This document shows positions 5,081 to 20,396 of a DNA stretch of 21,273 nt, one piece after another. The notes under the pieces were generated by a model. That model saw only the letters and a list, made by a program, of their open reading frames with translations. It was not told where the DNA came from and did not search any database. Every line of letters starts with the position of its first letter. Positions within the stretch are counted from its first letter, which is position 1. The stretch comes from Promethearchaeota archaeon (GTDB lineage: Archaea; Asgardarchaeota; Lokiarchaeia; Sigyniarchaeales; SOKP01). The stretch lies in NCBI GenBank assembly GCA_030599585.1, contig JAUVNS010000031.1, forward strand, positions 1 to 21,273, read 5' to 3'. A program made the translations under genes and the position numbers.

Positions 5081-6565
5081 ATGATAATAATCTTATACAG
5101 AATAAAGCCCAGTATTTACCAAACACAATTGACCGATTTTACAGGGTTAAAATCTATTGAAAAATACGACATGAGCGTTCCAAAAGATTACAGAAACGCC
5201 CGAAAAAAATTTCGTTGGATTCCAATACATCCCACATGGGGGGCGCATACTAAGCAAACTCCGAGAACCATACCTAAATCCCAGAAAAGGATTCAAGACT
5301 TCATAGATTGGGAACCAAAACTAAAGGATATATACTTATATCGATTCCCGCGTGTCAAAATCCCCTGTTTTAAAGATTTTGGGATGGGAGTGATCTCTAA
5401 ATTGGAATGGAATATGCATCGATATCTAAAAGGATTTAGCGGATTCTTTGAAAACTTATTTGAATTTAACGATTTTAGCTTTTTCCAGGATCTCCAAGGG
5501 ATTCTTGAGGAACACGGCGTGTCATTTAAGAATATGTTTATTGAGGATGTGCTTGCATATGAAATGTTGCGAATTAACTTGGGCTTTAAAAATTACGCTG
5601 GAATTGAGAAAATGGGGAGGTTTCTTTCTTTTCCACCTCTATTCAGCATTACACATGACTCTAAATTCTTTCCAAAGGCACAAGATATCAGTTATGTAAT
5701 GACCAGAATCCCGCCTGAAGCGCTGTTTGAATTCTTTCAGCTGCTGGTAAAAGAATGCATTAATTATGGTATAATCGTCCCTAGAATCCTAATTTGGGAT
5801 GGTCAATTCATACGTTCAAATTGTAACAATAATAAAAAGAAAGGGCAACCGAAATATACTGATTCTGATGCGGGATATTGTCGCCATAATGGTATCAAGA
5901 AGGGTGTGGGCTATGATCCCGGAATATTATACGTTCATTGCTTTAATCGCTGGTTTCCCATATATTTCAAGATGTTTGCTGGAAATCGGAACGATATTCT
6001 CGCGTTTAGAGAAACAATGGAAGAATTTTTTACACATACGGAATATGAATGGCAAGTACTTATTGCAGATTCGGGCCATTATTCTCTACAAAACATGGAG
6101 AATATGCGATCTAAAGGGCTATTACCAATTATTCGAGCGCGGAAACATCTGAAGACCCATCCTATAAGGGAGTTAAAAAAAGGATTTTTTTTCAATACGG
6201 AATATATTCCAAAAGGATGGTCGGATGATTATTTTCTCAAGATCTACAGCTTTCGACCAATGATTGAGCAAGGAAATTCATACAATTATACGTTTTATAA
6301 TGCCTTTCGGATGAACACTAGGGGAATGGACGCGGCAAGAAAACATCGATCAATAATCTATATTCTAGAACTATTAAAAGCGCTGACTGCGTATAAAATA
6401 GGGCGCCCCAAGTTAATTATGAAGCCTTCTGCTTTTGAATCCTCTCGGCACTCCAATTTTAAACTCATGCTTCCTTACGAAGCACAAAAATCGGGATATA
6501 TTTACTTCAATTCCGACGAAGTATTACGCCGACGAATTAAAAATCGTTATGGGTTAATGTCCTAA
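5081..6565 (+). CDS. DDE transposase (DDE_Tnp_1-like)
   Basis: Catalytic triad contexts ILIWDGQ, LIADSGHYS and YSFRPMIE (Y-2-R-3-E), plus the motifs DSDAGY and AGNRND. The true start may be the ATG at 5171. Confidence 0.9.
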   Translation: MIIILYRIKPSIYQTQLTDFTGLKSIEKYDMSVPKDYRNARKKFRWIPIHPTWGAHTKQTPRTIPKSQKRIQDFIDWEPKLKDIYLYRFPRVKIPCFKDFGMGVISKLEWNMHRYLKGFSGFFENLFEFNDFSFFQDLQGILEEHGVSFKNMFIEDVLAYEMLRINLGFKNYAGIEKMGRFLSFPPLFSITHDSKFFPKAQDISYVMTRIPPEALFEFFQLLVKECINYGIIVPRILIWDGQFIRSNCNNNKKKGQPKYTDSDAGYCRHNGIKKGVGYDPGILYVHCFNRWFPIYFKMFAGNRNDILAFRETMEEFFTHTEYEWQVLIADSGHYSLQNMENMRSKGLLPIIRARKHLKTHPIRELKKGFFFNTEYIPKGWSDDYFLKIYSFRPMIEQGNSYNYTFYNAFRMNTRGMDAARKHRSIIYILELLKALTAYKIGRPKLIMKPSAFESSRHSNFKLMLPYEAQKSGYIYFNSDEVLRRRIKNRYGLMS

Positions 6566-15063: not shown

Positions 15064-15164
15064 TAACGAGTATCAATTCTAACAAGTACTATGTGAGAAG
15101 ATGTAAAAAACAATCTTGAAAGTGGACTTGATTTTTCTTAAAGATTTTGTTCGCGATAAACTAA

Positions 15165-15440
15165 GATTTCGCCCTAATTCGCTCCCTAAACATCCTTTAA
15201 TCAAGAGGTTATATATCATTTCCAACATGAGACTCTAAATAGAGTCTTAGATTTCTTATGGACTGAAAAGTAAAATTAGACTTACTTTTCAATTCCATGC
15301 GTATTTAACCTTTAATAAAAGAGAACAGGTGAATATTAAAAGAAAGAGAAGGGAAAAGAAATCTGAGCATTTTTATTTAAAATTAGGGAGAGTTTAAACC
15401 CAGTTGAGTTTAATAGGGGGCGAAATCCGATTTAGCTCAA
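15165..15440 (+). ncRNA. Candidate structured RNA or MITE-like element
   Basis: Five nested helices plus one crossing 12-bp helix (coordinates in findings). G-U pairs favour the + strand. Confidence 0.45.
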
Positions 15441-15697
15441 ATTGTCTTGGTATAAGGTTCCCTTTCTACATTTTATTAAGAAATTCAAATATTAAAACTC
15501 TATCGAAATAGCTATTAAAAAAAGCGGAATCGATAAATCAGAAATTGGGAATTTTGATACTATTTTGGATATTGTCTTTTTTTTTTAACTCCTTCAGGAT
15601 GGAAAAATTAATAAACAGTGCTATTTACAATTGAAATAATCCATAGACACATTTGTAATAAATATGAATATTATAAATATTTAGAGGAGGTTATAAA

Positions 15698-16006
15698 ATG
15701 AGTAATGAAAATGATGAAGTTTTTGACCTTTATTTCATAATAGAACCAGAAAAAGCAGAGATCGTGAGAGGAGAAGAAGATGAGAAGAAAATACCTAGAG
15801 TTATGAGAAGAATTGAAAAGAAGTACATAAATGGTATTAAATCTTTTGGTGCACGTATGTTTAAAATAATAGATGATGAGAATTTAGAATTGGATGAAAT
15901 CAACCTTGATTTTAAGGGGGATTTAAGTTCCAGATTAAATTTTGGAGTTTTTGAAATTGGTGGTGGGGTAGGAGCTTCGATATCTTTTAAATTAAAGAAA
16001 AAGTAA
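15698..16006 (+). CDS. Pepco/Trypco-like small protease-associated protein
   Basis: Strong GGAGG SD. An N-terminal strand and acidic loop with VRG are followed by a helix and a Gly-rich beta hairpin (LELDEINLDF...FGVFEIGGGVGASISFKLKKK). It sits directly upstream of a CHAT protease. Confidence 0.7.
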   Translation: MSNENDEVFDLYFIIEPEKAEIVRGEEDEKKIPRVMRRIEKKYINGIKSFGARMFKIIDDENLELDEINLDFKGDLSSRLNFGVFEIGGGVGASISFKLKKK

Positions 16007-16045
16007 AATAGGAAAGATTTGAGAATTTAGATTAAAAAATGAAAA

Positions 16046-17566
16046 ATGCCGATTAAAGGTTTAGCTGTCTTTTCCGCACCAAGAGGGAAGGAACGACTTA
16101 ATATTAGATTGGAAAAGGAAACTTTGGTTAAAGCTATAAATAACACAGGCTATGCTCATTTATTTGATATTACTCCAGAATTACATATAACTCTACCTAA
16201 ATTTAAAGAACTGTTAAAAGATGATTTTCAACTAATCCAATTTTCAGGACATTCAAATCAAACACATATTTTTTTTGAAAAAGAGGATGGTACTAGTCGC
16301 AGAATCCCAATAAATTCCTTTATTAAATTTATAGAGAAGAAACTTCAATCCCCTGACAATCAACTTAAATGCATGATTTTTAATTCGTGTTTTTCCTTCA
16401 AATTAGGTGAAGAATTATCCAAACTAGGTATATGTACGATCTCAATGGAACAAGAAATTAAGGAAGAAGCAGCTAGATTATTCACAGAAGGCTTTTATGA
16501 GGCTTATAGCCCTGAGACAACAATTCTCGAAATGTTTGAAAATGCTAAAAATAACATGCAACTACATAATCACCCTAACTGGAAGATACCTGAACTCAAA
16601 GGAGATGGAAATCTCAAGTTTGACATAATTGAAATCCCAGAATTTCAACCATACCAGGGAGTATTGCTCATTCAGGAACATTATGAAATATTAAAAGAAT
16701 TTGAAGGTTTAATTGGTAATAAATCTATTCCAATCGTAAATAAAGTCGAAATTGACACATTTGGCTTTTCTGAAAACGATGGTCGAATAATCTCTTTAGG
16801 ACTCCCAAGCTGTGGATTGACATTTCTACCATTTTCAATTAAGAATTTAAATTCACTTCAAATTCTTGGTTTAAATAACAATGAAATAACTACTTTACCA
16901 AAAACAATTGGACACCTTAATTCACTTCAAATATTATGGATTAAAAACAATAAAATAAAAATTTTACCAGATACAATTGGAAACCTTAAATCATTAACAG
17001 AACTTAATTTGAGTGCAAATCAGTTATTGAATTTACCGGAAAGCATTGGAAACTTACAATCATTAATAAAATTAGAATTATATCACAATCAAATTAAAAA
17101 AATTCCAAAAACTATTGGATCGCTAAATTCTCTCCAAACTTTAAATCTTTCTAAAAACCAACTCAATGAGATTCCAGATGAAATTGGACAGCTTAAATTG
17201 CTCACATATCTTGATTTGAGTGATAATCTAATAAAATCCCTTCCTTCAACAATTGGACAACTTAATTCACTCAAAAATCTTATTTTAAATAGTAATCGAT
17301 TAGTATCTCTCCCAATATCGATAGATGGCCTTACATCTCTCATCTACTTGTCTTTATGGAAGAATAAATTGAAAAAACTCCCGAATTCTATAGGAAATCT
17401 AAAATCTCTTGAATATTTAATTTTATCGGATAATCAATTAAAATCTTTCCCTATTTCAATTATATGCTGCAAAAATCTTGAAATCTTTAGTTTTAAAAAT
17501 AATCCAATTAAAATTGTCCCTCATGAAATATCTAGTTGGTTGAAAAAATTTAGAAAAAAAAAATAG
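16046..17566 (+). CDS. CHAT (caspase-like, clan CD) protease fused to leucine-rich repeats
   Basis: Motifs LAVFSAP...L...E, IQFSGHS (His69), MIFNSCFS (Cys115) and AARLFTEGFY. An LRR cap (GFSENDGRIISLGL) is followed by ten 23-aa LRRs. Confidence 0.9.
   Translation: MPIKGLAVFSAPRGKERLNIRLEKETLVKAINNTGYAHLFDITPELHITLPKFKELLKDDFQLIQFSGHSNQTHIFFEKEDGTSRRIPINSFIKFIEKKLQSPDNQLKCMIFNSCFSFKLGEELSKLGICTISMEQEIKEEAARLFTEGFYEAYSPETTILEMFENAKNNMQLHNHPNWKIPELKGDGNLKFDIIEIPEFQPYQGVLLIQEHYEILKEFEGLIGNKSIPIVNKVEIDTFGFSENDGRIISLGLPSCGLTFLPFSIKNLNSLQILGLNNNEITTLPKTIGHLNSLQILWIKNNKIKILPDTIGNLKSLTELNLSANQLLNLPESIGNLQSLIKLELYHNQIKKIPKTIGSLNSLQTLNLSKNQLNEIPDEIGQLKLLTYLDLSDNLIKSLPSTIGQLNSLKNLILNSNRLVSLPISIDGLTSLIYLSLWKNKLKKLPNSIGNLKSLEYLILSDNQLKSFPISIICCKNLEIFSFKNNPIKIVPHEISSWLKKFRKKK
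16817..17506 (+). repeat. Ten tandem 69-bp/23-aa LRR units
   Basis: Consensus LxxLPxsIGxLxsLxxLxLxxNx. Confidence 0.9.
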
Positions 17567-17577
17567 AATTCTATTTT

Positions 17578-18129
17578 TTATTGATTTAAAGATTGATCAA
17601 CTTTTATGCCAATGTCAATAAACATTTGACGAGCTCTATCTCCACTCATAGATTCAGGTTGTATATTTGCCAATTTAGTCAACTCATTATTCCCTATTTT
17701 TATTAATTTTCCGTCTTTAACTAAGTTTCTAATTTGCTCAAAGATTGGACCATATAATTGCTGATATGGTAATCCCGCTTGACAACTCATCTCCATAAAT
17801 TCCAATTGTGGGCAGATATATATTATATTAAATCCAAACCTAAAAGCTGCTGCTATCATTCCACCTAAAAATGTATCTATTTCAATTGATAAGGTATTTC
17901 TTACATCAAGACCTGCACGTGCGTTTTCTAAAATCTTTTCCTTTATTTTATTTTCCTTCAATTTTGATAAGGCTTTTTTCAATTTTTTTTTAGGAAAACC
18001 AATTCGGGAAGAGAACAATTCTGCTTGGGAGATCAAGTTTTTCCGTTCTTGAAAGCTTCCAAAATACCATGAAATCTTTGCTATTGTAAAACCTAGTCTA
18101 TATGATGCACCAATTTCCATATTTAACAC
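17578..18129 (-). CDS. Hypothetical helical protein with an internal two-fold repeat
   Basis: 183-aa ORF convergent on CHAT-LRR. IGASYRLGFTI (6-16) resembles IAAAFRFGFNI (92-102). The start may be the ATG at 18120. Confidence 0.72.
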   Translation of the reverse strand: MLNMEIGASYRLGFTIAKISWYFGSFQERKNLISQAELFSSRIGFPKKKLKKALSKLKENKIKEKILENARAGLDVRNTLSIEIDTFLGGMIAAAFRFGFNIIYICPQLEFMEMSCQAGLPYQQLYGPIFEQIRNLVKDGKLIKIGNNELTKLANIQPESMSGDRARQMFIDIGIKVDQSLNQ

Positions 18130-18647: not shown

Positions 18648-18743
18648 TTATAGTATGAATTATTACATCATTTCATAATTTTTGTTAAGAATTTTTGTTA
18701 TACTATGAATTATTACATCATTTCATAATTTTTGTTAAGAATT
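18639..18743. repeat. 50-bp tandem duplication (2.1 copies)
   Basis: 18639-18688 and 18689-18738 differ at one base. Each unit contains two AATTTTTGTTA subrepeats and a TATGAA/TTCATA inverted pair. Confidence 0.92.
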
Positions 18744-19078
18744 CGCAGTTCAAAAAACCAATTATAAGCGCCCGTTGTAGGAATCTCGTGATTACCTAAA
18801 ACGAATACTATATAAACGCCTTGATTTTTTATGGTATAAAGTAAATCATAGATTCTCTTAAATTCGGGATTATTGCATAAGTTTCTAAAAGTATTCATAA
18901 TGATGTCAAATGTATCTCCAAGGATAATAAAAGTTTTCAATTGAGGTAGATTACCTCGTTCTATATCTTGAAATAAATTAAGGAGAAATAGCTCAAATTC
19001 GCTTATTTTACAATATAAATCACCTAAGTGAATGTCCGATATAACAATTACCAATGATTTTCTATTAAATGTAGTCAT
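18713..19078 (-). pseudogene. 3'-truncated calcineurin-like metallophosphoesterase
   Basis: SDIHLG, GDTFD and GNHE are present, but the later His and GHxH motifs are absent. The ORF ends inside the 50-bp repeat. Confidence 0.8.
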
Positions 19079-19523: not shown

Positions 19524-20396
19524 ATGTCGGATAGGTTAGCAAATGTAAAAGAACGTAGGGCAATGATTGTACCTGTAGGTCTTGAAGTAGCAAGAATTAT
19601 TGAGGGGTTTACTCCTTATGCTATAAATGTACTTTATTTAATAACAAACCCAGAAAACAATTCTGAAGGAAAAACAACTAATGTGAATGATAAAAAGAAA
19701 AAATTATCTTCAGTACAAAAATATACCCTCAAATTTGCTAAAATGATAAAGAGAAAATTCGAAGATTCTTACTTAATTGTGGAATTTAAATATGCCGCTT
19801 TAAATTCTTTTTATGAATGTTATAATATTTTAGATGAGATCTACAAAGAAGAGATTGCAACAAATAAATTAAAACACATTTTCATTAATGTATCTACCGC
19901 ATCTAAAGCCTTTGCGTTATCTGCATATGTTTTTGCTCTAATACATTTTAATATAGTGACAATTTTTTATATGAAGGCATCTAAATATCTTATTTTAGAA
20001 TATTTAGAAAAAGATGGTTCAATAAAAGAATTGGAAACAGAGTTTTTAAAAAATGGTTTAACAAAAGGGCCATATAAAATTGAGGAAATTCCAACTTTTC
20101 CTATATTAGAATTTTCTCAAGATGAAAAAACTTTGATAAAAATACTTGCTATTCAAGATCAATTTAACACTATAAAAGAAATCATAAGAGAATTCGTTAC
20201 TGAAACCGACCAATCTGTTGAATGGGACGATTTAAAAAAAAAAGATAAAAATCGTTATAGAACAAAGGTAAAACGGCTATTAGATAACTTGCAACGTAAG
20301 CGCCACATCGAATATGAAAAAAAAGCAAATAAAATAAATGTTAAAGTCAATGAAAGCTTAAAACATATTGATCAGATAATTAATTGGCAAGCATAA
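19524..20396 (+). CDS. CARF-like Rossmann + winged-HTH transcription regulator (DUF6293/HFX_2341/Csa3-like)
   Basis: Motifs IVPVGLEVARI, LYLIT, IFINVSTASK, IFYMKASKY and IEEIPTFPI, then a C-terminal wHTH (KVKRLLDNLQRKRHIEYEK). Confidence 0.78.
   Translation: MSDRLANVKERRAMIVPVGLEVARIIEGFTPYAINVLYLITNPENNSEGKTTNVNDKKKKLSSVQKYTLKFAKMIKRKFEDSYLIVEFKYAALNSFYECYNILDEIYKEEIATNKLKHIFINVSTASKAFALSAYVFALIHFNIVTIFYMKASKYLILEYLEKDGSIKELETEFLKNGLTKGPYKIEEIPTFPILEFSQDEKTLIKILAIQDQFNTIKEIIREFVTETDQSVEWDDLKKKDKNRYRTKVKRLLDNLQRKRHIEYEKKANKINVKVNESLKHIDQIINWQA

Follow-up and report, generated by a model that had tools for sequence, protein, structure and literature searches.

Protease-licensed pore toxins, such as Pepco, EACC1 and gasdermin, are emerging as a dominant logic of prokaryotic immunity. 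To our knowledge, the Pepco cases described so far are bacterial, and most involve serine proteases. A pair of genes encoding a small, putatively Pepco-like protein and a CHAT (caspase-haemoglobinase fold) protease fused to leucine-rich repeats (LRRs) is carried by contig JAUVNS010000031.1 of an Asgard archaeon (NCBI 'Promethearchaeota archaeon', assembly GCA_030599585.1). The stretch analysed, referred to here as the window, is the entire 21.3-kb contig (21,273 nucleotides), from a 4.85-Mb genome in 52 contigs with an estimated completeness of 100% and a contamination of 8.92%.

Pepco was first described under the names Trypco1 and Trypco2, two families that were defined by their partnership with trypsin-like peptidases of conflict systems (Kaur et al., 2020, PMC7159879). 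SsPepco, from Streptomyces subrutilus, forms β-barrels of 9–10 subunits that are resistant to sodium dodecyl sulphate (SDS) and carry amphipathic helices; the adjacent protease, SsAvs4, shortens it by about 2 kDa at the C-terminus, cutting after Ile97, and SsPepco, which is toxic only in this exactly trimmed form, makes pores once activated by the neighbouring protease (Evans et al., 2025, preprint, 10.1101/2025.11.14.688446). The proteases encoded next to Pepco genes are of the serine or the cysteine type and carry a variety of sensors, not all of which include a nucleoside triphosphatase (NTPase) (10.1101/2025.11.14.688446), and caspase-like proteases fused to LRR, TPR, WD40 or NACHT domains lie beside bacterial gasdermins (Johnson et al., bioRxiv 10.1101/2021.06.07.447441). 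Given these two reports, the sensor–caspase–pore logic is already established for bacteria. The parallel with sensor–caspase–gasdermin systems drawn in an earlier, sequence-only reading of the locus thus holds for the logic itself, but its novelty was overrated.

The small gene (15698..16006, + strand) encodes 102 amino acids and the CHAT-LRR gene (16046..17566, + strand) encodes 506; the two are co-oriented and 39 nt apart, as that reading had described them. The pair is likely to be a Pepco-type protease–effector cassette, i.e. a cell-suicide module for abortive infection or conflict, consisting of a divergent Pepco pro-toxin and a sensor-tethered CHAT protease. The 102-residue pro-toxin would self-assemble via its β-hairpins into a small β-barrel with a collar of basic amphipathic helices, and the CHAT-LRR protein would be a cytoplasmic cysteine protease, its CHAT domain tethered to a repeat sensor. 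When the LRRs, acting as ligand sensor, met their trigger, the CHAT domain would cut the small protein at one site, and this single cut would license the latent assembly as a membrane-permeabilizing pore, in a presumed defence role. It had been proposed that cleavage frees an effector that then oligomerizes; this step should probably be reversed, as the Pepco barrel described in the literature assembles first and is licensed by cleavage afterwards.

Like SsPepco and SsAvs4, the locus encodes a small protein (about 100–117 amino acids) immediately upstream of a sensor-fused protease, and this protein shares with SsPepco an N-terminal strand, an amphipathic helix, a C-terminal β-hairpin and, by prediction here, self-association. 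The effector cassette is swapped among different sensors, as in Pepco–protease modules. The protease is, however, a CHAT (cysteine) enzyme rather than a trypsin-like one. The small protein is missed by all the Pepco-type models of Pfam and NCBIfam and ends in KKK, without the long proline- and charge-rich C-terminal tail and conserved isoleucine cut site of SsPepco. The host is an Asgard archaeon, and the sensor differs too: NTPase-less LRRs in the window, an nSTAND3-HEAT unit in the sister loci. In bacterial gasdermin operons with caspase-like (C14/CHAT) proteases, a sensor made of repeats (LRRs are named explicitly) may likewise be fused to the protease, which activates the latent pore-former encoded next to it, a relation only predicted here; the effector of the window, however, is no gasdermin but a 102-residue Pepco-like hairpin protein of another fold, which would, by the SsPepco precedent, be a pre-assembled barrel. 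Among solved structures, SAVED-CHAT (8tl0) is nearest to the protease domain, in sequence as well as in structure, and its dyad aligns. A sensor domain controls CHAT activity in SAVED-CHAT and in TPR-CHAT/Csx29 (Craspase), as presumably here. Those systems are CRISPR-linked, triggered by filament formation driven by cyclic triadenylate (cA3) or by target RNA, and cleave PCaspase or Csx30, whereas the window pair lacks both a CRISPR link and any SAVED or TPR domain. The eukaryotic inflammasome (an LRR sensor of the nucleotide-binding LRR receptor (NLR) type, caspase-1 and gasdermin D) follows the same logic, from an LRR/STAND sensor to a caspase-fold protease and a pore-former. This is an analogy only. 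The effector is non-homologous, and adaptors of the CARD or PYD type are absent here. Unlike STAND/NLR-type sensors, the window protein has no P-loop NTPase between its effector domain and its repeats.

The CHAT protease and its exchanged sensor

Residues 1–200 of the large protein (16046..16645) constitute a compact CHAT domain with an intact His69/Cys115 dyad, according to profile, structure and feature matches. In the ESM-Atlas feature comparison, CHAT clusters of 170–195 amino acids ranked first (score 0.93). A profile built from five CHAT-domain homologues (A2) retrieved the PF12770-bearing protein P0012 (E 3.4e-9; 98.4% in hhalign) and the SAVED-CHAT chain of PDB entry 8tl0 (E 8e-8), aligning FSGHS with HFIGHG and FNSC(F) with LNAC(C). 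The His and Cys residues are 47 residues apart at the aligned 8tl0 positions and 46 residues apart in the window protein; the published catalytic dyad of SAVED-CHAT is H375/C422, with a spacing of 47 (preprint 10.1101/2023.06.23.546230). The AlphaFold2 (AF2) model of the domain (predicted local distance difference test score, pLDDT, 68; predicted template modelling score, pTM, 0.72) had 8tl0 as its best solved match in Foldseek (E 2.8e-10; template modelling score, TM, 0.70), followed by caspases and legumains (E about 1e-4). His69 (in FSGHSN; codon 16250–16252, + strand) and Cys115 (in FNSCFS; codon 16388–16390, + strand) are invariant in all five homologues, and each directly follows a core β-strand, the position expected for the class; the dyad noticed at the outset is, thus, retained.

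The pairing of the two genes is conserved, as a comparison of neighbourhoods has borne out: in every locus bearing a homologue of the small protein (L001–L007), its gene is followed, 30–40 nt later, by a CHAT gene with the same MPIK...GHS...NSC domain. The small-protein family has four known members, and the Asgard source suspected from the sequence is corroborated by one of these homologues, which sits in a metagenome-assembled genome (MAG) labelled 'Promethearchaeota archaeon' by NCBI, and by the window's own genome, which clusters with some 400 genomes that all belong to one phylum. In blastn comparisons with these relatives and L008, about 1.07 kb of DNA is shared at 72–81% identity, from 15577–15658 to 16638–16655. 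This block opens some 40–120 nt 5' of the small gene and closes at CHAT residue ~200, with an abrupt loss of similarity. The conserved unit therefore consists of the presumed promoter, the Pepco-like gene and the CHAT domain, with the sensor exchanged. Its upstream region (15577..15697, + strand) contains an AT-rich, TATA-like stretch and a Shine-Dalgarno-like ribosome-binding site, GAGGAGG, 8 nt 5' of the ATG of the small gene; the scan for promoters and terminators remained at background level. Both coding parts of the unit are under purifying selection relative to the relatives, with ratios of non-synonymous to synonymous substitution rates (dN/dS) of 0.17–0.34 for the small gene and 0.27–0.32 for the CHAT part.

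Beyond residue ~200, where the homology to relatives ends, the window protein takes its own course. In five related metagenomic or MAG loci, the CHAT domain is fused to an nSTAND3 NTPase and HEAT repeats; in the relatives P0007 and P0008, for example, nSTAND3 (PF20720) occupies residues 223–378 and HEAT repeats are also present. The window protein instead has a linker and an LRR N-terminal cap at residues 201–247 (16646..16786, + strand), the cap resembling the N-terminus of stand-alone LRR proteins of the same genome. These are followed by eleven LRRs, each of exactly 23 residues, at residues 248–500 (16787..17545, + strand), the presumed sensor or binding domain, and a short basic C-terminal tail, KKFRKKK, with the stop codon (17546..17566, + strand). 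The fusion and the regularity of the repeats had been recognized from the letters alone, but the repeats had been counted as ten. Pfam finds LRR families only in the large protein (residues ~250–500), in line with the absence of NTPase/P-loop and TPR domains that had also been remarked upon. From residue ~208 to 506, N-terminal cap included, the protein resembles a complete stand-alone LRR protein of the same genome (45% identity), and this genome contains at least ten LRR paralogue loci. Judging from these comparisons, a whole LRR unit, of a kind common in the host genome, took the place of the nSTAND3-HEAT sensor exactly at CHAT residue ~200. As the relatives carry CHAT-nSTAND3-HEAT, the form with LRRs and no NTPase is a derived one, known from this single case, and not the conserved state; the sequence-only reading needs correction on this point.

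No close copy of the small gene was found in the 399 other Asgard species genomes, which include 41 of the same genus. The module is, thus, rare among Asgard archaea, and its scattered occurrence is in keeping with horizontal spread. When 400 Asgard genomes were scanned with A2, they yielded distant CHAT proteins only, with other architectures (TPR-CHAT, HEAT-CHAT and long N-terminal CHAT proteins), and no Pepco-like gene was found beside them. In a sister locus (L008:597-916 and L009), the Pepco-like gene is split into open reading frames (ORFs) of 47 and 49 amino acids, with an intact C-terminal half in one frame and the N-terminal half in another, and the downstream CHAT-nSTAND3 gene is cut off from its HEAT part (409 + 202 amino acids); this looks like a decaying copy, or the result of sequencing frameshifts. 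The CHAT domains of the three closest relatives (L003, L007 and L008) have pairwise dN/dS values of 0.7–1.0 at a synonymous divergence (dS) of ~0.09–0.1, versus about 0.3 at greater distances, which could reflect relaxed or diversifying selection over short times, or small-count noise.

The small protein, its kinship and its predicted assembly

The view that the 102-residue protein is a remote, divergent relative of Pepco and Trypco1, as the sequence-only reading had suggested, is supported by profile–profile comparison, language-model features, gene position and a helix-plus-hairpin organization. Its acidic N-terminus, with a short strand, has D or E at 11 of the first 30 positions and a pLDDT below 50 in the AF2 model, consistent with the exposed loop originally proposed. 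It is followed by a basic amphipathic helix (residues ~32–58) and a C-terminal β-hairpin or meander (residues 63–101) that is as glycine-rich as first described (GGGVGASISFKLKKK). The protein ends in KLKKK directly after the last strand, its final KKK being invariant, and the window copy retains every invariant residue of the family. Among ESM-Atlas features, Pepco/Trypco1 clusters ranked first (0.88; 204 of 256 features), with nine of the ten best family-bearing matches belonging to one family or clan.

The small-protein profile (A1) was compared with an independent set of seven Pepco/Trypco1 sequences: three Asgard members found with Pfam models, one of which has a trypsin-like protease immediately after it, and four Streptomyces plasmid members, three of which ('CU044_2847 family') lie directly upstream of giant trypsin-like proteins. 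The hhalign alignment was colinear, with a score of 24.0 (E 1.3e-3; probability 18.5%) that none of 400 column shuffles reached (mean ~11, standard deviation 2.1, maximum 18.1); the probability against a single bona fide Pepco was 8%. An early value of 96.7% for A1 against Pepco was discounted as partly circular. Two Asgard proteins, L012p and L013p, bridge the gap: they match the independent Pepco set at 95–96%, and A1 matches them at 94% and 88%, respectively. With these bridges added to the set, A1 reached 86% (E 4.9e-6), over the helix and the entire hairpin. A search with the Trypco1 model independently retrieved one of the two. Six-frame genome searches with PF24393 and PF19493 did not find the small protein, and a tblastn search with an Asgard Pepco against plasmids gave no match. 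An NLR-associated amyloid signalling pair (BASS/Bell), in which the small protein would share a short C-terminal motif with the N-terminus of the NLR, was also considered and rejected: when the small protein was compared with P0005 and P0007 by BLASTP, nothing better than E 3 emerged.

Other Pepco-type genes of Asgard archaea have different neighbours. A genome of the same family as that of the window (G156) encodes a canonical Trypco1 of 115 amino acids, above the Pfam cut-off (L022:1336-3031), and, 14 nt after it, a 444-residue protein with a trypsin-like GMSGG motif; classical Pepco/Trypco1–serine protease pairs therefore occur in Asgard archaea too. The genome G173 encodes a Pepco-like protein of 93 amino acids (L012:184-3181), just under the Trypco1 cut-off (E 3.7e-4), flanked on one side by a protein whose HRDLHAGN motif is kinase-like and on the other by a 348-residue multi-pass membrane protein; no protease gene is visible in the 3.2 kb examined. 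In G147, a bona fide Pepco of 100 amino acids (PF24393, 36.8 bits; L019:3-1785) lies upstream of a membrane-anchored member of the acyl-CoA:6-APA (6-aminopenicillanic acid) acyltransferase / peptidase C45-like family (PF03417), a different candidate processing enzyme.

Several computed properties of the protein would fit, as indirect evidence, a Pepco-like barrel. The basic helix at residues 32–58 is strongly amphipathic (hydrophobic moment 0.63, matched by 0.4% of shuffles), and the last strand is amphipathic as a β-strand. Modelling of the homo-oligomer, which had been suggested as a check, gave a four-copy prediction that passed its controls, with an interface score (interaction prediction score from aligned errors, ipSAE) of 0.43 against 0.00 for the best control, run agreement of at least 76% and a partner pLDDT of at least 64; of 30 proteins whose solved structures are homo-pairs, 20 attain this mark, as does 1 of 23 whose solved structures are single chains. 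In this model, strand 91–101 of one copy pairs with strand 65–76 of the next and helix packs on helix. This predicted geometry is as expected of a hairpin barrel, and it backs self-association, short of demonstrating it.

The activation cut, if there is one, must differ from that of SsPepco, because the small protein has no C-terminal tail beyond the invariant KKK. One candidate site is the invariant C-terminal K-[LI]-KKK itself, by analogy with the C-terminal trimming of SsPepco. Another is Arg24, in the acidic N-terminal segment, which is invariant in the four homologues and forms part of a separase-like ExxR/G site (residues 21–25, with the putative cut between R and G). Canonical Streptomyces Pepcos, compared by eye, also have an arginine at the end of the N-terminal strand segment, although the alignment places it in a column other than that of Arg24; Arg24 may therefore mark the family and not a point of cleavage. 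Arginine or lysine at P1 is often accepted by clan CD enzymes, a preference that would fit either the KKK end or Arg24.

Competing explanations and significance

A number of observations weigh against the interpretation of the pair as a protease–effector cassette. No recognizable defence genes other than the pair itself adjoin it in family scans of the window, and PADLOC gave no match on the locus proteins. The models for Pepco (PF24393), Trypco1 (PF19493) and Trypco2 and those of NCBIfam do not match the small protein or its three homologues at E<=1, and an exhaustive search of 1.84 billion representatives with A1 returned its own cluster only; for these two reasons, the small protein is an isolated sequence family. 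Direct profile–profile probabilities are low (22% against a three-sequence set and 18.5% against the seven-sequence set), and the two bridging proteins were chosen by the A1 search itself (per-genome E values of 1.5e-5 and 4.2e-4, over 400 genomes). As a monomer, the small protein is modelled poorly by AF2 (pLDDT 47), and the tail of about 20 residues, rich in proline and charge, through which SsPepco is activated is absent, together with its conserved isoleucine. The Pfam CHAT model (PF12770) does not score on the N-terminal domain even at E<=1. The CHAT-LRR fusion is present in one assembly only, and no other contigs with the junction were found, scans of the collections returning one already known contig and one distant CHAT.

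Some of these observations could be accommodated if the small protein, neither substrate nor toxin, regulated the protease as its inhibitor, chaperone or adaptor, and if its likeness to Pepco reflected only a common helix-plus-hairpin pattern. The weak direct homology statistics, the lack of any matching family model and the missing gating tail would suit this explanation, and there is a precedent for an inhibitor gene beside a prokaryotic caspase (PCi). We nevertheless consider it very unlikely, given the bridging profile links of 86–96%, a shuffle null exceeded in 400 of 400 cases, language-model neighbours that are Pepco and Trypco1, a predicted lateral strand pairing between copies that agrees with barrel geometry, and the amphipathic character of both the basic helix and the terminal strand. 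More improbable still is that the CHAT-LRR junction is an assembly chimera and that no such protein exists. The fusion is, admittedly, a singleton in a MAG of 52 contigs with 8.92% contamination, but the reading frame runs through the junction unbroken and encodes a plausible linker and an entire LRR cap, no DNA of the junction recurs elsewhere in the genome such as could seed a mis-join, and the G+C content is uniform over the junction (0.29–0.30).

The strongest competitor, although itself unlikely, sees in the LRR form a mere by-product, derelict or rewired, of a recombination that put a host LRR gene in the place of nSTAND3-HEAT; the protease would then have lost its regulation as a defence sensor and could be inactive, or co-opted for some other LRR-mediated protein interaction or signalling, and the small protein would be kept only transiently. 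The nSTAND3-HEAT architecture of all five related loci, the singleton status of the LRR fusion, the absence of the small gene from all 41 genomes of the same genus, the availability of at least ten LRR paralogue loci as possible donors and the decay of the sister locus L008/L009, with its frameshifted small gene and split STAND protein, are all compatible with such an origin. Against it, both ORFs of the window are intact, with the dyad and all the invariant residues of the small protein retained, the fusion is in frame with a complete LRR N-terminal cap, and the dN/dS between the window and its relatives is far below 1. In addition, Pepco-associated proteases fused directly to NTPase-less sensors (FGE and peptidoglycan-binding domains) are reported, and LRR-fused caspase-like proteases adjoin bacterial gasdermins. 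The protease–effector cassette, therefore, remains the explanation that we prefer. A more specific version, that an NTPase-less LRR array directly gates a caspase-fold protease licensing a pore-forming peptide in an Asgard archaeon, with STAND-HEAT exchanged for a host LRR and with a Pepco subfamily using a new activation site, is proposed tentatively and is rather doubtful as a whole.

The class of mechanism has already been published; what is new here is the archaeal host, the divergent Pepco subfamily, the minimal CHAT domain, the LRR in place of STAND-HEAT and the lack of a C-terminal tail beyond KKK. The locus would add a divergent subfamily overlooked by current family models, place the Pepco family in Asgard archaea and link a candidate toxin to a CHAT protease of minimal size (200 residues). 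The locus also amounts to a natural experiment, in which the same effector cassette (72–81% DNA identity) is wired either to nSTAND3-HEAT or to an NTPase-less LRR, and to a compact system for asking how a repeat sensor alone can switch a caspase-fold protease and at which site Pepcos associated with CHAT proteases are cleaved. If the proposed mechanism is correct, an LRR receptor–caspase–pore death switch would be at work in the closest prokaryotic relatives of eukaryotes. The locus by itself has no bearing on the origin of eukaryotic inflammasomes. Its occurrence in Asgard genomes is sporadic, and nothing points to vertical descent into eukaryotes.

Surroundings of the gene pair

No Rfam match was found anywhere in the window. 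About 510 nt of non-coding DNA (15064–15576), likewise without an Rfam match, separate a CDP-alcohol phosphatidyltransferase gene from the start of the cassette, and contain a single terminator-like hairpin (15228–15249). Some 9 kb upstream of the module, between M6 and S8 peptidase genes, an insertion sequence element encodes a 494-residue DDE_Tnp_1 transposase (5081–6565). On the other side, a convergent ORF of 183 amino acids (17578–18129, – strand) ends 11 nt past the stop codon of the CHAT-LRR gene; it has no match in Pfam, NCBIfam or PADLOC and lies outside the block common to the relatives. Further downstream, an ORF of 121 amino acids (18713–19078, – strand) is probably truncated: of a calcineurin-like metallophosphoesterase, it retains the N-terminal part alone. 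It is adjoined by a gene for an HFX_2341-like/DUF6293 winged-helix protein (19524–20396, + strand).

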